Shown: positions 18,860 through 27,953 of the stretch, one piece after another
How positions within the stretch are numbered: position 1 is the first letter of the stretch
Layout: every line of letters begins with the position of its first letter
DNA from: Alphaproteobacteria bacterium
Lineage (GTDB): Bacteria; Pseudomonadota; Alphaproteobacteria; Bin95
Direction of reading: 5' to 3'
DNA length: 64,000 nt
Assembly (NCBI GenBank): GCA_965205265.1
Contig: CBDBGH010000003.1
Span: 1,760,001-1,824,000, forward strand
Notes under the pieces: generated by a model
Told to the model about the DNA's origin: nothing
What the model saw: the letters and a program-made list of their open reading frames with translations, nothing else
Database searches by the model: none
Position numbers and translations under genes: made by a program

Positions 18860-19498
18860 TCAGATGTCGGACGGGAAACGGCGGTGGATTTCGGCCACCT
18901 GCTCCGGAGTCAACGGCCGGGTCTTCATGCCCTGCAGGGCGAGGAACAATTTGGCCGTCTCCTCCAGCTCCTCCGTGGCATAGACGGCGTCGGCTAGGGA
19001 CCTGCCCGCCACCACAGGCCCGTGATTGGCCAGCAGCATGGCGTGATGGTCGGAGGCCATCTCGCGCACCGCCCTGGCAAGGTCGATATCGCCCGGCGGA
19101 AAATAGGGAATGAGCGGCAGCGTGCCCACGCGCATGACGTAATAGGCCGTCAGAGGCGGCAGCACATCCGCCTCGTCGATCTCCGCCAGGCAGCTCACCG
19201 CGACCGAATGCGTCGAATGCAGATGGACGACCGCCCCCGCCTTTGGCCGGCGCTCATACACGGCGATATGCAGGAAGGCTTCCTTAGTCGGCGCGTCGCC
19301 CGAGACATGGGTCCCGGCGGCGTCCAGCCGGGAAATCCGCGCCGGGTCCAGATCGCCCATGCTCGAGCCGGTCGGCGTCATCAGCCAACCGTCGTCCAGC
19401 CGGACGCTGATATTCCCCGTCGAGCCGAAGGTCAGGCCCCGGTCGAACAGCGACTTGGCCATGCCCGCGATCCGGTCTCGCAGCTTTGCCTCGCTCAC
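18860..19498 (-). CDS. otnC: Class II aldolase family, 3-oxo-tetronate 4-phosphate decarboxylase (OtnC/YgbL)
   Basis: GTG start overlapping the otnK stop; SLFDRGLTFGSTGNIS, PTKEAFLH, VVHLHSTHSVA, LLANHGPVV, EELEETAKL. Confidence 0.88.
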   Translation of the reverse strand: MSEAKLRDRIAGMAKSLFDRGLTFGSTGNISVRLDDGWLMTPTGSSMGDLDPARISRLDAAGTHVSGDAPTKEAFLHIAVYERRPKAGAVVHLHSTHSVAVSCLAEIDEADVLPPLTAYYVMRVGTLPLIPYFPPGDIDLARAVREMASDHHAMLLANHGPVVAGRSLADAVYATEELEETAKLFLALQGMKTRPLTPEQVAEIHRRFPSDI

Positions 19499-20605
19499 GG
19501 CAGCATCCCGAAGGCGTCGGCGAAAAACGTCTCCGCGCCGAAGTTCCCGGATTTGAGCGCAAGCGCAAGGGGCCTGCCGCCGACGGCCTCCGTCCACGGA
19601 ACGCCGGGCGCGATTTCGGGGCCGATGCGCAAGGCGGCCGCCCCAAGGGCCGAGACGACGGCGCCCGATGTTTCCCCCCCGGCGACGACAATGCGCGAGA
19701 AGCCGTTATCGGCAAGTGCACCGGCAATCCTCTCGAAGGCGGATTCGAACATGCGCCCTGCCCCTTCGACACCGTAGCGGGCCTGCACCGCCGAGACTTC
19801 CTCCGGCCCGGCGGACGCATAGACCAGTACCGGCTTGCCGGTCGGGCGGGTGAGCGCCCAGGCTATGGCGTCCTCAACCTCACCCGGCCCTGCGGCCAGC
19901 CCGTCGGGATCGATCTTGCGGGCGGGCCAGAGTCCCTCGACAGCCGCGATCTGCGCCCTGGTGGCGGCCGAGCAACTACCCGCCAGCACGACTTCCCGGC
20001 CCGCCGCCTCCGGCAGGACCGGCGCGGACCCGGCCGAAAGCAGGCCCGACCTGCGGAAATTCTCCGGCAGGCCCATGCCGATCCCCGAGCCTCCCGTGAC
20101 CAGCCTGTGGTCCGCCGCCGCCTCACCGACCCGGCGCAAATCGGCGTCCGCAACGGCATCGACGACCCCGTATCGCACACCGTCGGCCTTCAGCGCCGCG
20201 ATGCGCGATCGGATTGCGACGACGCCCGCGCTCACATCCTGCAGCGGCACCAGCCCCACCCGGCCCTGCGACTGCGCCGCCATCAGCCGGATCAGGCTGG
20301 AATCCCGCATCGGCGTCAGCGGGTGGTCCTTCATCGGCGACTCGGAAAGCAGCATGTCGCCGACATAGAGATAGCCCCGGTAGATCGTGCGCCCGTTGGT
20401 CGGAAAGGCGGGGCAGACCAGCGCGAAGTCCGCGTCGAGCGCATCCGCCAGCGCATCGGCGACGGGGCCGATATTGCCCTTCTCGGTGGAATCGAAGGTG
20501 GAGCAGTATTTGAAGACGATCTGCCGGGCGCCCGCCTCCCGCAGCCACCGGAGCGCCTCCAGCGAGCTCTCCACAGCTTCGTCCACCGGCGCGGTTCGCG
20601 ACTTG

Positions 20606-20676
20606 AGCGCCACCACGACCGCCTCCGCATCGCCGATATCCGCGCCCGTGCCCGGCACGCCGACGGTCTGCACCGT
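20606..20676. repeat. 71-bp target-site duplication, left copy (IS copy 1)
   Basis: Identical to 22593-22663 (AGCGCCACC...CTGCACCGT). Confidence 0.95.
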
Positions 20677-22592
20677 CCTGACTTCGACGGTTGGGCTGAC
20701 TTCTGACCGATCTCGCGTCTGGAGTTTTCAGTAAAGCCAATGAGTTGGCAGTTGCGGTGCGGTCAAGCTGCGTTGTAGTGCCTAGTAAATCTTTGAGACT
20801 GTCAATGCCTCCGCCACGCGCTACACTCCCCCCATGTTCGTGCGCATCAAGACCTCCCCCAACAGCCCGCGACGCTCGGTCCAGATCGTCGAGGCCGTGC
20901 GCGACGGCGGCAAGGTCCGACAGCGCATCGTCCGCCATGTCGGCGTGGCCATGGACGAGGACGAGCTCGAGCGCCTGAGGCAGCTCGGCGAGTACGTCAA
21001 GGCGAAGCTGGAGGACGAGCGTCAGCCGGCATTGTTTGCGCCCGAGAAGATCGCTGAGCAGGCGATCCGTGTCGGCCGCCGGGGGGACGGCAAGGAGGAA
21101 CTCCCGGTCGACCTCAAGCAGCTTGAAGAGGAGCAGCGCCTGATCACAGGCATCCACGAGGTCTATGGCGAGATCTACCGGCTGCTGGGCCTCGACGCGC
21201 TGCTGCCGCGCTCGCGCTACCGGGCCTCCCATGACGCGCTGTTCCATGTGGTGATGGCGCGGGTAGCCAACCCCGACAGCAAGCGGGGCAGCGTGCGCCG
21301 GCTCGAGGAGGACTTCGGCGTGAGTCTTCCGCTCGAGAAGGTCTACCGGATGATGGATCAGCTCGACGCGACGGTGATCGAGCGACTGCGCACGCGCGTC
21401 GGCGAGGCGAGCCGGTCGCTGCTGCCGGAGCCGGTCGCGATCCTCTTCTTCGATTGCACCACGCTCTACTTCGAGACGGCCGCCGAGGACGAGCTTCGCC
21501 AGCACGGCTTCAGCAAGGACGGCAAACACAAGGACTCGCAGGTTCTGCTGGCGCTGATGGTGACGCGCGAAGGGCTGCCGATCAGCTACGAGGTCTTCCC
21601 CGGCGCCACCTACGAGGGACACAGCATGGTCCCGGTCCTGCAGGACATGCAGCGCCGCCACCAGGTGGAGCGCACGGTATGCGTGGCCGACCGGGGCATG
21701 CTGAGCGCCGACAACCTCGACGCCATGGACGCCATCGGCGGCGAGTATGTCGTCGGCGCGCGGCTGCGCAAGCTGCCGCTCGCGCTGCTGGGGCAGGTTC
21801 TCGACCCCGGGACCTATGCCCCGCTGGAGGGCTCACAGGACCGCCGGGTCGGCGAGTGGGAGTACAAGGGCCGTCGCCTGATCGTCGTCTTCTGCCCCCA
21901 GCGCGCACGCAAGGACGCGCACGAGCGCCGCCATCAGGTGGAACGCCTGCTCGACAGGCTGGCCCGCAGCGACAATCCCAGGGAACTGCTCTCCAATCAC
22001 GGGGCGAAGCGCTTCATCGCCGTCGAGGGCGACGCACGGCTCACGGTGAACCCGGAGAAGATCGCCGAGGCCGCACGATGGGACGGGCTCACCGGCGTCA
22101 TCACCAATCTGCGCGACGCGCGCGTCACCGAAGTGATGGCTCACTACCAGGGGCTCTGGCAGGTCGAGGAGAGCTTCCGGATCACCAAACACGACCTGAA
22201 GATACGTCCCATCTGGCACTGGAACCCGGACCGGATCCGCGCTCACATCGCCATCGCCTTCCTGGCCTTCGCCTGCGTTCGACACCTTGCGTACCGCGTC
22301 GCCATCCAGAAGCGGCGGATGTCCCCGGAGGTCATCCGCTCCGCCCTCGTCCACCGCCAGTGCTCCCTGCTGCGCTGTCGGCAATCGGGCAACCGCTACG
22401 TCATCCCCTCGAAGCCGACACCGGCGGCGGAGCAGATTTACGCAACCATGGGGCTGCCCCTGACGATCACCCCGTATCAACTCGCCTGACCGTCGACGAA
22501 GCACGGCTCGAAGAAATGCCGGATGTAGTGCCTAGCCGAAATGAGAACCAGGCAATATCAACTACTTATGCGAATCAACCGTCGAAGTCAGG
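20677..22592 (+). mobile_element. IS1634-family insertion sequence, copy 1 (1,916 bp)
   Basis: 17-bp terminal inverted repeats CCTGACTTCGACGGTTG / CAACCGTCGAAGTCAGG; single 551-aa transposase; boundary ambiguous by 1 bp at each end. Confidence 0.95.
20834..22489 (+). CDS. IS1634-family DDE transposase
   Basis: FFDCTTLYFE (D), GFSKDGK, YEVFPG, VCVADRGM (D), YQGLWQVEESFRITK (E), IRPIWHW..RIRAHIAIAFLA. Confidence 0.95.
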   Translation: MFVRIKTSPNSPRRSVQIVEAVRDGGKVRQRIVRHVGVAMDEDELERLRQLGEYVKAKLEDERQPALFAPEKIAEQAIRVGRRGDGKEELPVDLKQLEEEQRLITGIHEVYGEIYRLLGLDALLPRSRYRASHDALFHVVMARVANPDSKRGSVRRLEEDFGVSLPLEKVYRMMDQLDATVIERLRTRVGEASRSLLPEPVAILFFDCTTLYFETAAEDELRQHGFSKDGKHKDSQVLLALMVTREGLPISYEVFPGATYEGHSMVPVLQDMQRRHQVERTVCVADRGMLSADNLDAMDAIGGEYVVGARLRKLPLALLGQVLDPGTYAPLEGSQDRRVGEWEYKGRRLIVVFCPQRARKDAHERRHQVERLLDRLARSDNPRELLSNHGAKRFIAVEGDARLTVNPEKIAEAARWDGLTGVITNLRDARVTEVMAHYQGLWQVEESFRITKHDLKIRPIWHWNPDRIRAHIAIAFLAFACVRHLAYRVAIQKRRMSPEVIRSALVHRQCSLLRCRQSGNRYVIPSKPTPAAEQIYATMGLPLTITPYQLA

Positions 22593-22663
22593 AGCGCCAC
22601 CACGACCGCCTCCGCATCGCCGATATCCGCGCCCGTGCCCGGCACGCCGACGGTCTGCACCGT
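22593..22663. repeat. 71-bp target-site duplication, right copy (IS copy 1)
   Basis: Identical to 20606-20676. Confidence 0.95.
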
Positions 22664-22789
22664 CTTCACGCCCTCCCCGACCCAGGTGCCGGCAAGGTCC
22701 GTCGCCCCGGTGAAATCGTCGGCAATCGCGCCCAGCACGATACTCATGCAACGGCCTCCGTCCGGTATCGCCCAGGAAGCGCGCCGCCG

Positions 22790-23326
22790 TCAGTGCGAAT
22801 AGCCCCTGAGCCGATGGTAGCTCTCGACCTGCTCCGGCGTGAGCTCGCGAGCGGCCTCGATATGCGCAAGCAGGTGGATCGCCCTGAGCTCGCCCTGCAT
22901 GACCCCGAGATGCCCGGTCGCCTGCGTCACGTTTGCGGCCGTCGGCCCGCCCGAAGCGAACAGGCCCGCGAGGTGACGTTCCGCCGCCAGGATGGTCTCG
23001 CCCTTCGCGACCGCCTGCGCCTTCATCTTCTCGTAAATCGCCTCGATGCGGCGGAGCTGCCTGCCGGCAAGGCCGAGTTCCGCCTTGAGTTCGAGAAGGT
23101 GCCTCGGCCCCGGGAAGCGGTTGAGTTCCGCCGCCCGCGCAAGGCCCATGCCGTCGCCTTCCCGCAGCTCACGAACCTCCTCGGCCGTCAGGCTCGGGAT
23201 TTCCGCGCTTTGCCCGTGCACATAGGGTGAGGCACCGTGCGAATGCTGCGCCGACGCCGACGCTGAAACCAGGGCGATGACGCAGACCGGGGCAAGAGAT
23301 CTGAGCAGGCGGGTCGCAGTCTTCAT
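22790..23326 (-). CDS. Exported Spy/CpxP-like (heavy-metal sensor-like) protein
   Basis: Signal peptide ending ASA-Q; LREGDGMGLARAAELNRFPGPRHLLEL, HLLAHIEAARELTPEQVESYHRLRGY (LTxxQ motif). Confidence 0.85.
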   Translation of the reverse strand: MKTATRLLRSLAPVCVIALVSASASAQHSHGASPYVHGQSAEIPSLTAEEVRELREGDGMGLARAAELNRFPGPRHLLELKAELGLAGRQLRRIEAIYEKMKAQAVAKGETILAAERHLAGLFASGGPTAANVTQATGHLGVMQGELRAIHLLAHIEAARELTPEQVESYHRLRGYSH

Positions 23327-23499
23327 CGGTTCCTCCGAATCCCGTGGCGGTTCGATTGACCGCGACTATGCCCGCCCCGGTGTCCCGGCGGCAACAGAGC
23401 GTCAGCCCCGCATCGCCGCGCCATTGGGGTCGAAGAGCGGATGGCTCTGGAGGCGGGCGGGGCGGCGGTCGCCGAGAATTTCGATTTCCCAGCCCTCCT
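23297..23499. repeat. 203-bp target-site duplication, left copy (IS copy 2)
   Basis: Identical to 25416-25618; contains the spy-like start, the intergenic region and the last ~32 codons of the GcvT-family gene. Confidence 0.95.
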
Positions 23500-25415
23500 C
23501 CTGACTTCGACGGTTGATTCGCATAAGTAGTTGATATTGCCTGGTTCTCATTTCGGCTAGGCACTACATCCGGCATTTCTTCGAGCCGTGCTTCGTCGAC
23601 GGTCAGGCGAGTTGATACGGGGTGATCGTCAGGGGCAGCCCCATGGTTGCGTAAATCTGCTCCGCCGCCGGTGTCGGCTTCGAGGGGATGACGTAGCGGT
23701 TGCCCGATTGCCGACAGCGCAGCAGGGAGCACTGGCGGTGGACGAGGGCGGAGCGGATGACCTCCGGGGACATCCGCCGCTTCTGGATGGCGACGCGGTA
23801 CGCAAGGTGTCGAACGCAGGCGAAGGCCAGGAAGGCGATGGCGATGTGAGCGCGGATCCGGTCCGGGTTCCAGTGCCAGATGGGACGTATCTTCAGGTCG
23901 TGTTTGGTGATCCGGAAGCTCTCCTCGACCTGCCAGAGCCCCTGGTAGTGAGCCATCACTTCGGTGACGCGCGCGTCGCGCAGATTGGTGATGACGCCGG
24001 TGAGCCCGTCCCATCGTGCGGCCTCGGCGATCTTCTCCGGGTTCACCGTGAGCCGTGCGTCGCCCTCGACGGCGATGAAGCGCTTCGCCCCGTGATTGGA
24101 GAGCAGTTCCCTGGGATTGTCGCTGCGGGCCAGCCTGTCGAGCAGGCGTTCCACCTGATGGCGGCGCTCGTGCGCGTCCTTGCGTGCGCGCTGGGGGCAG
24201 AAGACGACGATCAGGCGACGGCCCTTGTACTCCCACTCGCCGACCCGGCGGTCCTGTGAGCCCTCCAGCGGGGCATAGGTCCCGGGGTCGAGAACCTGCC
24301 CCAGCAGCGCGAGCGGCAGCTTGCGCAGCCGCGCGCCGACGACATACTCGCCGCCGATGGCGTCCATGGCGTCGAGGTTGTCGGCGCTCAGCATGCCCCG
24401 GTCGGCCACGCATACCGTGCGCTCCACCTGGTGGCGGCGCTGCATGTCCTGCAGGACCGGGACCATGCTGTGTCCCTCGTAGGTGGCGCCGGGGAAGACC
24501 TCGTAGCTGATCGGCAGCCCTTCGCGCGTCACCATCAGCGCCAGCAGAACCTGCGAGTCCTTGTGTTTGCCGTCCTTGCTGAAGCCGTGCTGGCGAAGCT
24601 CGTCCTCGGCGGCCGTCTCGAAGTAGAGCGTGGTGCAATCGAAGAAGAGGATCGCGACCGGCTCCGGCAGCAGCGACCGGCTCGCCTCGCCGACGCGCGT
24701 GCGCAGTCGCTCGATCACCGTCGCGTCGAGCTGATCCATCATCCGGTAGACCTTCTCGAGCGGAAGACTCACGCCGAAGTCCTCCTCGAGCCGGCGCACG
24801 CTGCCCCGCTTGCTGTCGGGGTTGGCTACCCGCGCCATCACCACATGGAACAGCGCGTCATGGGAGGCCCGGTAGCGCGAGCGCGGCAGCAGCGCGTCGA
24901 GGCCCAGCAGCCGGTAGATCTCGCCATAGACCTCGTGGATGCCTGTGATCAGGCGCTGCTCCTCTTCAAGCTGCTTGAGGTCGACCGGGAGTTCCTCCTT
25001 GCCGTCCCCCCGGCGGCCGACACGGATCGCCTGCTCAGCGATCTTCTCGGGCGCAAACAATGCCGGCTGACGCTCGTCCTCCAGCTTCGCCTTGACGTAC
25101 TCGCCGAGCTGCCTCAGGCGCTCGAGCTCGTCCTCGTCCATGGCCACGCCGACATGGCGGACGATGCGCTGTCGGACCTTGCCGCCGTCGCGCACGGCCT
25201 CGACGATCTGGACCGAGCGTCGCGGGCTGTTGGGGGAGGTCTTGATGCGCACGAACATGGGGGGAGTGTAGCGCGTGGCGGAGGCATTGACAGTCTCAAA
25301 GATTTACTAGGCACTACAACGCAGCTTGACCGCACCGCAACTGCCAACTCATTGGCTTTACTGAAAACTCCAGACGCGAGATCGGTCAGAAGTCAGCCCA
25401 ACCGTCGAAGTCAGG
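23500..25415 (-). mobile_element. IS1634-family insertion sequence, copy 2 (1,916 bp, inverted)
   Basis: Same length, TIRs and transposase translation as copy 1, opposite strand. Confidence 0.95.
23603..25258 (-). CDS. IS1634-family DDE transposase
   Basis: Translation identical to 20834-22489. Confidence 0.95.
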   Translation of the reverse strand: MFVRIKTSPNSPRRSVQIVEAVRDGGKVRQRIVRHVGVAMDEDELERLRQLGEYVKAKLEDERQPALFAPEKIAEQAIRVGRRGDGKEELPVDLKQLEEEQRLITGIHEVYGEIYRLLGLDALLPRSRYRASHDALFHVVMARVANPDSKRGSVRRLEEDFGVSLPLEKVYRMMDQLDATVIERLRTRVGEASRSLLPEPVAILFFDCTTLYFETAAEDELRQHGFSKDGKHKDSQVLLALMVTREGLPISYEVFPGATYEGHSMVPVLQDMQRRHQVERTVCVADRGMLSADNLDAMDAIGGEYVVGARLRKLPLALLGQVLDPGTYAPLEGSQDRRVGEWEYKGRRLIVVFCPQRARKDAHERRHQVERLLDRLARSDNPRELLSNHGAKRFIAVEGDARLTVNPEKIAEAARWDGLTGVITNLRDARVTEVMAHYQGLWQVEESFRITKHDLKIRPIWHWNPDRIRAHIAIAFLAFACVRHLAYRVAIQKRRMSPEVIRSALVHRQCSLLRCRQSGNRYVIPSKPTPAAEQIYATMGLPLTITPYQLA

Positions 25416-25618
25416 AGATCTGAGCAGGCGGGTCGCAGTCTTCATCGGTTCCTCCGAATCCCGTGGCGGTTCGATTGACCGCGACTATGCCCGCCCCGGT
25501 GTCCCGGCGGCAACAGAGCGTCAGCCCCGCATCGCCGCGCCATTGGGGTCGAAGAGCGGATGGCTCTGGAGGCGGGCGGGGCGGCGGTCGCCGAGAATTT
25601 CGATTTCCCAGCCCTCCT
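25416..25618. repeat. 203-bp target-site duplication, right copy (IS copy 2)
   Basis: Identical to 23297-23499 (offset 2119). Confidence 0.95.
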
Positions 25619-27953
25619 CTTCGGCCGCCAGCGCCTTAGGCACATAGCCGCAGGCGACGGAGACGCCGGACCAGTGGGCGTAACCGCCGGAGGTAATCGC
25701 GCCGACCACCTCGCCGCCGCGCCAGACCGGCTCGTCGCCCATGGCGTCGGCATCGTCGGCGTCCATCGAGAAGAAGCAGAGCCGGACATCGCCGCCGGTA
25801 TCGCGCTCCTGCAATGCCGCCTCCTTGCCGATGAAGTCCGCAGCCTTGCCGTAGGCCACGAAGCGGTCGAGCCGCGCTTCCACCGGGCCGTAGAGCGGGC
25901 GGTATTCCCGCGCCCATGAGGCGTAATGCTTCTCGACCCGGAGCCCGTTCAGCGCCCGGCTGCCGAAGGGCCGGATGCCGTGCACCGCGCCTGCCTCCAG
26001 CAGCAGGGCGAGCAGCAGGCGGTGGTAGTCGGGCGCAACCCAGATCTCATAGCCGAGGCCGCCCGTATAGCTGACCCGGCCGACAAGCGCCGGCGCGGCG
26101 CCGAGCGTCATGCGGCGCACATCCATGAAACGGAACGCCTCGGCGGAGACATCCTCATCCTCGCCGACAAGCGCCGCCAGCACGTCGCGCGCCTTCGGCC
26201 CGGCTATCGTGAGCCCGTTCAGTCCGGACCCCAGCGGCGCGACCGACACCGACCCGTCCGCCGGCAGATGCCGGGTGAACCACCGCATGTGGTACTCCTC
26301 GGCAGGGCCGGAGCCGACCAGCCGCCAGAGCCCGCCGCCGAGATTGGCGAGCGTGAAGTCGCCGATGATCTTGCCGCCCTCGTTCAGCATTGGCGCCAGG
26401 CCCATGCGCCCCTCGCGCGGCAGCCGGCTTGCCAGTATCCGGTCGAGCCAGGCTTCCGCGCCCGGACCCATCGCATCGTAGGCGGCGAAGCCGCTGGTCT
26501 CCGCAACGCCGACGCCCTCCCGCACGGCCCGGCACTCCGCGCCCACATGCTCGAAGTCCGTGGAGCGGCGGAAGGAGAGCCTGTCCTCGACGCCGGGCGG
26601 AGCGAACCAGAGCGGCTGCTCCAGACCCCAGGCGTCGCCGAACACCGCACCCATCGCCGCCATCCGGTCGTGGACCGGCGTGGTGCGGAGCGGGCGCGCG
26701 GCGGGCAGTTCCTCGTTCGGGAAGCGGATCGAGAAGCGCCGGGAATAGTTCTCGCGGACCTTGGCGTCGGTATAGGCGGGCGTCGCCCAGGCGCCGTAGC
26801 GGGCGACGTCCATGGCGTGAATGTCGAAACCGGGGTCGCCGTCCACGATCCAGTTGGCGAGCGCGAGGCCGACGCCGCCGCCCTGGCTGAAGCCCGCCAT
26901 GACCGCACAGGCGCACCAGAAGCCCGGCAGGCCGCGCACCGGCCCGACAAGCGGATTGCCGTCCGGCGCAAAGCTGAACGGACCGTTGATGACCCGCTTG
27001 ATGCCGGCCTCCTGAAAGGCCGGGAAATGCTCGAACCCGACTTCCAGCGAGGGCGCGATGCGGTCGAGGTCCGGCTGGAGCAGCTCGTGGCCGAAATCCC
27101 AGGGCGTGTCCACGGGAGACCAGGGCTTGCAGGCCTTCTCATAGGTGCCCATGAGCATGCCGCGGCCTTCCTGGCGCAGATAGATTTCGCCCTCGAAATC
27201 CACGACATGCAGCATCTCGCCGCCCGTCTCGCGGTTGTATGCCTCCACCTCCGGCATGTCGTCGGTGATGAGATACATATGCTCCATGGCGAGGATCGGC
27301 AGTTCGAGGCCGACCATGCGCCCGACCTCGCGCGCCCAAAGCCCGCCGGCATTGACGACATGCGCCGCTCGGATTTCCCCCTTGTCCGTCGTCACCAGCC
27401 ACTCGCCGCCCGGAAGCGGCTCAAGCGCCTCGACCTTGGTGAAGCGGTAAATCTCGGCTCCCTGCTTGCGGGCCGCTGCGGCATAGGCATGGGTCGTGCC
27501 GGACGGGTCCACATGGCCGTCATCGGCGTTCCAGAGCGCCCCCACGAAATGCCGGGGGTCGAGCAGCGGCATGTGCCTGTGCGCCTCCTCGGCGGAGACG
27601 ATCTCGGTATCGAGCCCCAGATAGCGCCCGCGCGCATGGATCAGCTTCAGCCATTCCATGCGATCCGGCGTGCCGGCCAGCAGGTAGCCGCCCGTCACAT
27701 GCAGCCCCGCCGACTGGCCCGATGCGGTCTCGATCTCCGGGTAGAGGTCGATGGTGTATTTCTGGAGCTTCGCGATATGCGGGTCGCCGTTGATGGTGTG
27801 CATGCCGCCGGCGGCGTGCCAGCTCGATCCCGAAGTGAGCTCGTCGCGCTCGACCAGCACGACATCCTTCCAGCCGCGCTTCGTGAGGTGGTAGAGCACC
27901 GAAGCGCCGATCACCCCGCCGCCGATAACGACGACTTCGGTATGGGTTTTCAC
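25521..27953 (-). CDS. FAD-dependent GcvT-family oxidoreductase (dimethylglycine/sarcosine dehydrogenase-like)
   Basis: VVIGGGVIG, LTSGSSWHAAG, INGPFSFAPDGNPLVGP, RVSYTGGLGYE, LRVEK, ITSGGYAH; 810 aa. Confidence 0.93.
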   Translation of the reverse strand: MKTHTEVVVIGGGVIGASVLYHLTKRGWKDVVLVERDELTSGSSWHAAGGMHTINGDPHIAKLQKYTIDLYPEIETASGQSAGLHVTGGYLLAGTPDRMEWLKLIHARGRYLGLDTEIVSAEEAHRHMPLLDPRHFVGALWNADDGHVDPSGTTHAYAAAARKQGAEIYRFTKVEALEPLPGGEWLVTTDKGEIRAAHVVNAGGLWAREVGRMVGLELPILAMEHMYLITDDMPEVEAYNRETGGEMLHVVDFEGEIYLRQEGRGMLMGTYEKACKPWSPVDTPWDFGHELLQPDLDRIAPSLEVGFEHFPAFQEAGIKRVINGPFSFAPDGNPLVGPVRGLPGFWCACAVMAGFSQGGGVGLALANWIVDGDPGFDIHAMDVARYGAWATPAYTDAKVRENYSRRFSIRFPNEELPAARPLRTTPVHDRMAAMGAVFGDAWGLEQPLWFAPPGVEDRLSFRRSTDFEHVGAECRAVREGVGVAETSGFAAYDAMGPGAEAWLDRILASRLPREGRMGLAPMLNEGGKIIGDFTLANLGGGLWRLVGSGPAEEYHMRWFTRHLPADGSVSVAPLGSGLNGLTIAGPKARDVLAALVGEDEDVSAEAFRFMDVRRMTLGAAPALVGRVSYTGGLGYEIWVAPDYHRLLLALLLEAGAVHGIRPFGSRALNGLRVEKHYASWAREYRPLYGPVEARLDRFVAYGKAADFIGKEAALQERDTGGDVRLCFFSMDADDADAMGDEPVWRGGEVVGAITSGGYAHWSGVSVACGYVPKALAAEEEGWEIEILGDRRPARLQSHPLFDPNGAAMRG

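Follow-up and report, generated by a model that had tools for sequence, protein, structure and literature searches.

Target half-site preference and long, variable target duplications of an IS1634-family insertion sequence in an alphaproteobacterium

What decides the length of a target duplication when that length is not fixed? The question is raised by a stretch of 64,000 nucleotides (here called the window; positions 1,760,001 to 1,824,000 of contig CBDBGH010000003.1, GenBank assembly GCA_965205265.1, from an alphaproteobacterium of the Bin95 lineage), which carries two copies of an insertion sequence (IS) of the IS1634 family flanked by direct repeats of 71 and 203 bp. Since the late 1990s there has been no settled account of how IS1634 and IS1549 produce repeats that run to tens or hundreds of bases. 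A first-pass annotation of the window, made from its letters alone, had read a motif at the four repeat boundaries and had proposed that the spacing of two facing motifs sets the repeat length. We found that each element end prefers a half-site of approximately W-S^A-R, the two on opposite strands (W, A or T; S, G or C; R, purine; ^, the cut), and that the duplication lengths are compatible with a broad, roughly memoryless distribution and not with a length-setting code. The novel content is a target preference and a set of constraints on mechanism, in a new member of a known family. The more than 100 independent insertions of one clade that were collected provide four constraints for any model, namely, a common half-site, independent ends, fixed polarity, and broad spacing without helical phasing, and these make the question of how the repeats originate a testable one.

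The window insertions and the genomic set

The two copies, IS copy 1 (20677-22592, plus strand) and IS copy 2 (23500-25415, minus strand, inverted with respect to copy 1), are each 1916 bp long and 100% identical to one another. Each contains one open reading frame (ORF) of 551 amino acids (aa), the transposase gene, located at 20834-22489 on the plus strand in copy 1 and at 23603-25258 on the minus strand in copy 2, the ORF inside the latter stretch being identical to that of copy 1. The 17-bp terminal inverted repeats are perfect and begin with CCTGACTT; in copy 1, the left repeat (20677-20693, plus strand; CCTGACTTCGACGGTTG) is the perfect reverse complement of the right repeat (22576-22592, plus strand), which ends in ...GTCAGG. 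The transposase matches the IS1634-family model NF033559 over profile positions 1-482 of 483 with 341.3 bits (cut-off, 100), and it matches PF01609 (DDE_Tnp_1, the IS4-type DDE domain) with 54 bits (cut-off, 23). The family table of a 2008 review (PMC2266710) lists a length of 1500-2000 bp, ends of the form C-----YT, and AT-rich repeats that are typically 5-6 bp long. The element agrees with that table in size, in its single ORF, and in its end pattern. It departs from the typical short AT-rich duplication, with only 2 of 56 insertions in the 5-6 bp range and a median of 140.5 bp, and it shows the behavior of IS1634 and IS1549 themselves, that is, true target duplications of variable length, here exact repeats of 5-573 bp at 56 insertions. 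The window element is therefore a member of the IS1634 family and of its long-repeat subgroup.

Copy 1 is bordered by a 71-bp segment whose left copy (20606-20676) and right copy (22593-22663) match exactly, and copy 2 is likewise bordered by a 203-bp segment, with a left copy at 23297-23499 and an exactly matching right copy at 25416-25618. A congener, G012, carries the uninterrupted site, in which 2295 bp are collinear with the window and 2119 of these are identical. The order there is left flank, first repeat segment, middle, second repeat segment, and right flank. Because each repeat segment is single at this uninterrupted site (the 203-bp segment being about 213 bp long in G012 owing to small indels), the direct repeats in the window are true target duplications.

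The motif that had been read at the four cut points was confirmed when the sequence was re-read, and all four are indeed WWG^AS. They are TTG^AG at 20603-20607 on the plus strand (cut between 20605 and 20606), AAG^AC at 22662-22666 on the minus strand (cut between 22664 and 22663), AAG^AG at 23294-23298 on the plus strand (cut between 23296 and 23297), and AAG^AG at 25617-25621 on the minus strand (cut between 25619 and 25618). All four are kept in the empty site of G012. The octamers that had been listed around them, reading 5' to 3' into the duplicated segment, are likewise correct: CTTGAGCG, GAAGACGG, CAAGAGAT, and GAAGAGGA, respectively. The 1-bp ambiguity of the boundaries is also real, because the target base before each cut is a G and the element itself ends in G.

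The genome as a whole contains 55 full-length copies, all of 1916 bp and 53 of them 100% identical, in addition to fragments. When 1916 bp is taken as the element length, 48 of the 55 are flanked by repeats of 6-573 bp that match perfectly, and 7 have no flanking repeats. Two of the repeat-less copies (4894855 and 5202993) have swapped flanks, which in our reading points to homologous recombination that inverted the segment between them. A third recombinant flank pair shares a 76-bp repeat, and together with the swapped flanks it gave three more insertions. Five further insertions were recovered from copies split by other insertions. The data set for this genome thus consists of 56 reconstructed insertions (48 intact, 3 recombinant, and 5 split) with 112 duplication ends, in which the duplications span 5-573 bp and reach at least 100 bp in 34 of the 56. 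Since 53 of the 55 copies are 100% identical and the burst is therefore recent, the flanks are unlikely to have been shaped by decay or by long selection. The window copies are recent insertions of an active IS1634-family element.

Half-site preference at the element ends

The first-pass annotation had derived its motif from four ends and had named a logo over all genomic copies as the way to check it; in that logo the motif holds. With the four window ends removed, the 108 held-out ends contain 54 instances of G^A where about 7 are expected, along with 17 of WWG^AS and 14 of AAG^A. The first 46 held-out insertions that are intact (92 ends) by themselves show G^A 46 times, versus 5.0 expected (p = 2e-33). 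Over all 112 ends, the base counts are A 43, C 23, G 30, and T 16 at position -3; A 52, C 18, G 11, and T 31 at -2; A 6, C 31, G 73, and T 2 at -1; A 86, C 8, G 12, and T 6 at +1; and A 33, C 25, G 46, and T 8 at +2. The strongest position is +1, where A makes up 77%; G (65%) and C (28%) predominate at -1, and 74% of ends have A or T at -2. The relative entropy over positions -3 to +2 sums to 2.53 bits. The consensus is approximately a-W-S^A-R, which is looser than WWG^AS. In particular, the S that had been noted at +2 was not borne out, that position showing a purine instead. Ends at the left terminus and ends at the right terminus show the same logo.

Expected word counts were calculated from frequencies on both strands of the reconstructed targets around the insertion sites. 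The local frequencies are 0.068 for G^A, 0.0047 for WWG^AS, 0.0023 for AAG^A, and 0.039 for W-S^A, the last being about one site per 25 bases per strand. Against this background, G^A was observed at 58 of 112 ends (7.6 expected), S^A at 81 (13.5 expected), WS^A at 63 (4.4 expected), WWG^AS at 21 (0.5 expected), and AAG^A at 17 (0.3 expected). We also scored each end with a leave-one-out weight matrix over positions -5 to +3 and ranked it among the positions within 300 bp. The used sites score 2.5 bits on average and have a median rank in the top 2.6%; of the 112, 35 fall in the best 1% and 78 in the best 10%. The half-site is a clear preference and not a requirement. Mimicry of, or microhomology with, the ...CAGG at the element's own end was considered as a source of the motif and rejected, as only G at -1 and A at -3 agree with it, and at position -2, which is G in the element, 83 of 112 ends have A or T.

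Related elements were collected by a scan of one genome per species, which gave 77 loci with transposases 50-99% identical to that of the window element, most of them from a small number of metagenome-assembled genomes. As the hosts are few and related, each insertion, and not each genome, counts as an independent unit. The termini are conserved among the relatives as CCYGACTTCGA. Both element ends were located at 70 of the 77 loci, and flanking repeats of 16-1318 bp were found at 53 of the 70. After removal of alternative end pairs longer than 2100 bp, of the duplicate loci L002 and L003, and of L047, a diverged copy of the L045 region, 52 insertions with 104 ends remained. Position +1 is A in 77 of these ends, position -1 is G in 50 and C in 34, position -2 is T in 45 and A in 32, and position +2 is G in 46 and A in 36. 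S^A was found at 61 of the 104 ends (13.3 expected) and WS^A at 49 (5.7 expected). The enrichment of S^A is seen in all five host groups separately (5/14, 26/38, 14/30, 7/8, and 5/10), in flanks ranging from 40 to 66% G+C. The half-site preference is common to the clade and not peculiar to this genome.

Duplication length, polarity, and mechanism

The lengths in this genome have a mean of 178 bp and are compatible with an exponential distribution (Kolmogorov-Smirnov [KS] p = 0.29); those of the relatives have a mean of 242 bp and a median of 140 bp and are similarly compatible with one (KS p = 0.30), and pooling both sets gives p = 0.14. There was no periodicity in the duplication lengths, helical or other, the best spectral peak having p = 0.72. 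Clusters of length that had been seen by eye (198-205 and 567-573 bp) were rejected, the close-pair counts giving p >= 0.06. With a hazard of 1/178 per base, a site density of 0.039, and 56% of ends at W-S^A, the use of each facing W-S^A site comes to roughly 8%.

The two ends of an insertion choose independently in motif quality. The G^A status of one end is independent of that of the other (Fisher p = 0.39), and no dependence appeared in 2x2 tables of S^A or of A at +1, whether for this genome, for the relatives, or for both together. The first-pass annotation had supposed that each end picks a half-site independently on opposite strands and that the spacing of the two then acts as a rule for length; the first part stands over the 112 ends here and the 104 ends of the relatives, and the second does not. 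In position the ends are not fully independent, with at least 56 duplications versus at most about 4 full-length copies that are unexplained. The polarity of the two attacks must be constrained, because deletions would otherwise be about as frequent as duplications. Presumably, it is fixed by the synaptic complex, which leaves the distance between the attacks free.

These observations suggest the following course of events, with the strand-transfer chemistry carried over by analogy from DDE transposases generally. The 3'-OH of the terminal G at each element end would attack the target on opposite strands, at the bond between positions -1 and +1. The preferred bond would be that between G (or C) and A, preceded by A or T and followed by a purine (approximately a-W-S^A-R), and the strand-transfer product would carry ...GTCAGG joined to A-R.... 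With the polarity of attack fixed as a 5' stagger, the outcome would always be a duplication. The protein would not measure the distance between the attacks, which spans 5-573 bp in this genome and extends to 1318 bp in the relatives, and host repair synthesis would fill the two long single-stranded gaps to leave long direct repeats. The duplication length would then be the distance to whichever acceptable facing site happened to be used, each candidate site having a low probability. Both the gap fill-in and the control of polarity by the synaptic complex would belong to this scheme. Taken as a whole, recent insertions of an active IS with a half-site preference, a fixed polarity, and a free distance are probably the best explanation of the data.

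Several points weigh against this explanation. The use of DDE chemistry is inferred from other transposases. For the lengths, a log-normal and an exponential distribution fit about equally well. Six of the 112 ends score below the local median, and A at +1 is missing at 26 of the 112. About 4 of the 55 full-length copies have no explained duplication, and 17 of the 70 related loci show no flanking repeat within 1500 bp; these cases may be rearrangements or may reflect another geometry of insertion. The insertions are survivors in assembled genomes and not de novo events, so that some selection is possible. Finally, host group A is weak, with A at +1 in 6 of 14 ends and C in 7 of 14, which may reflect a shifted preference or a small-sample effect. 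In this group (loci L025-L033), C follows the right terminus at 6 of 9 loci, the terminal 17 bp match those of the window element, and 5 of the 7 repeat-bearing loci enter the logo.

One alternative is that the long repeats arise by a sequential, replication-coupled pathway in which transfer of one end comes first, the second end is joined later at a fork or gap, and the motif marks sites offered by the replication machinery instead of sites read by the transposase. IS1634-family transposases are reported, in the part of PMC4549789 that treats them, to bind the beta sliding clamp, and memoryless lengths would suit a second event uncoupled in time. One score-based hint points the same way. Insertions with two poor ends seemed rare by this score (4 versus 8.1 expected, P = 0.018), which had suggested that one good end suffices; the corresponding Spearman coefficient is -0.21 (p = 0.12), and we rejected the idea since categorical definitions of a poor end showed nothing, either here or in the relatives. 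Against such a pathway, both ends show the same motif at the same strength, which a single active site reading each of them would produce. Nothing observed ties the sites to replication, and no clamp-binding motif is shown in this transposase, no search aimed at one having been made. We regard this pathway as unlikely.

The strict form of the original proposal, in which the length is set by the nearest pair of convergent AAG^A-like motifs and is predictable from the target, was examined by counting, for each of the 56 insertions, the facing sites inside the duplication that score at least as high as the site used. The two window insertions fit it well, with 0/0 and 1/0 equal-or-better internal sites, and the rule looked convincing from four sites because these two are among the cleanest cases. 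In 14 of the 56 insertions the right side has no equal-or-better internal facing site, and in 13 the left side has none. However, both sides are clean in only 3 of 56, and many insertions have tens of better sites. A motif of about 2.5 bits, with W-S^A occurring every 25 bases or so per strand, is moreover hard to reconcile with a median duplication of 140.5 bp, and the summed motif score does not correlate with duplication length (Spearman 0.14, p = 0.30). A length rule of this kind is quite improbable.

A more general doubt is that the motif is not chosen by the transposase at all and reflects regional AT-richness or selection on the insertions that survived. Insertion neighborhoods are indeed slightly more AT-rich than the genome (0.34-0.37, compared with 0.318), and the first 10 bases inside the duplication have an AT content of 0.446. 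The signal is nevertheless specific to strand and position, with 86 A versus 6 T at +1, and at -1 it runs opposite to an AT bias, with 73 G and 31 C versus 8 A or T. Survival selection sits poorly with a recent burst in which 53 of the 55 copies are still 100% identical, and the same pattern recurs in hosts whose flanks range from 40 to 66% G+C. We consider this reading very improbable.

The weakest alternative, that the boundary is misplaced and the A at +1 belongs to an element of 1918 bp (T...A included) or to a carried donor base, starts from the fact that both window copies are flanked by T...AG and share a stretch of 1919 bp, and it can practically be dismissed, since 48 intact duplications are exact in register with 1916-bp ends (an extra base being impossible unless the target matched by chance), A is present at all four cuts of the uninterrupted G012 site, and the A and G at the cuts are target bases because 26 of 112 ends lack A at +1 and 39 lack G at -1, whereas the inner 1916 bp are invariant.

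Known systems and surroundings of the copies

Tn5/IS50 and Tn10/IS10, which belong to the IS4 family and have related DDE transposases, show a symmetric target consensus that is read as two half-sites, one per end. The stagger of these elements is fixed at 9 bp in the part of the 2008 review that describes them (PMC2266710), whereas that of the window element is free over more than 2 orders of magnitude.

The family founders, IS1634 from Mycoplasma mycoides and IS1549 from Mycobacterium smegmatis, have, like the window element, a single DDE transposase of the same NCBIfam family, a length of 1500-2000 bp, a terminus starting with C, and long, variable direct repeats. They differ from it in host, the window element residing in an alphaproteobacterium of 68% G+C. 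In the family section of the 2008 review (PMC2266710), IS1634 and IS1549 stand as exceptions with repeats of 8-514 bp, and according to the review a mechanistic model had yet to be put forward. The longest repeats are 573 bp in this genome and 1318 bp among close relatives. Exact repeats were observed in relatives with 90-93% identical transposases at L032 (1309 bp), L053 (1318 bp), L037 (978 bp), L033 (751 bp), and L052 (684 bp), and all five exceed the range in that section of the review. In the portions of the literature that were searched, with the original descriptions of IS1634 and IS1549 and the curated IS resources outside the scope, no target motif for the long-repeat elements was found. 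Other members of the family, ISPfe2 from Paracoccus and ISGka5 from Geobacillus, have 6-bp repeats according to the passages that mention them (PMC3281130 and PMC8024623). The shortest duplications of the window element, at 5 and 6 bp, are comparable, but only 2 of its 56 insertions are that short.

Half-site preference with fixed polarity and free distance may hold more widely. On this broader claim, which we advance tentatively and with somewhat more doubt than belief, the clade would have no ruler between its active sites, each end using a half-site of 4-5 bp (W-S^A-R) with fixed polarity and a chance, memoryless distance from 5 bp to more than 1 kb. If true, kilobase-scale repeats flanking IS1634 elsewhere could be the tail of the same process, and these elements would be direct generators of gene duplications. 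In the relevant part of PMC1798306, two 13-kb repeats about 1.8 kb apart in Mycoplasma mycoides PG1 are described as IS1634-flanked. Were that gap filled by IS1634, the layout would be repeat, element, repeat at kilobase scale; a shared origin with the duplications described here is speculation.

In the window, IS copy 1 splits a gene on the minus strand. The larger piece (19495-20673) encodes a sugar-binding SBD_N domain and a nucleotide-binding NBD_C domain (Pfam PF07005 and PF17042), and the N-terminal piece (22593-22750, minus strand) covers PF07005 profile positions 1-44. IS copy 2 is located between a 178-aa ORF and a DAO/GCV_T-type dehydrogenase gene. Both of its cuts lie within coding sequence, one 30 nucleotides into the 178-aa ORF (22790-23326, minus strand) and the other 98 nucleotides before the stop of an 810-aa ORF (25521-27953, minus strand). 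Both ORFs remain complete because the intervening 203 bp are duplicated. Long duplications can thus buffer the damage of an insertion and leave the neighbors intact, as at copy 2, and for annotation such insertions are less disruptive than they appear.

Elsewhere in the genome, a deletion-type insertion was not demonstrated for any of the duplication-less copies. One of these lies inside another multicopy element, and for another the congener does not have the copy's other flank nearby. At loci L113 and L119 (G000:C3:3245147-3249125 and G000:C3:4041930-4043565), at least 1.6 kb of the flank of a repeat-less copy recurs 0.8 Mb away without the element, the similarity stopping exactly at the element terminus; of the two flank copies, the one at 3.25 Mb contains an insert of 2342 bp. 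This arrangement may represent an empty-site paralogue, the outcome of a one-ended event, or a very long duplication that was later rearranged. Within the same genus the element was rare; G005 and G001 have one full copy each (89% and 85% identical, respectively), and there was no detectable duplication at either copy.

The 55 full-length copies, 32 in plus and 23 in minus orientation, are distributed unevenly along G000:C3, at 1, 2, 1, 4, 12, 4, 4, 4, 8, 8, and 7 per 0.5 Mb. Several lie within a few kilobases of one another, including a tandem pair 66 bp apart (2239812-2243709), and one copy is nested inside another at 4596309-4600231. A second multicopy element is present in at least 27 copies with 99-100% identity over about 976 bp (for example, at G000:C3 3853289-3854288, locus L114). 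Five of the IS1634-family copies are each split by an insert of about 2.8-3.3 kb that is flanked by duplications of 6-13 bp, and in at least four of these five the inserted DNA begins with the second multicopy element. The genome is rich in active insertion sequences.

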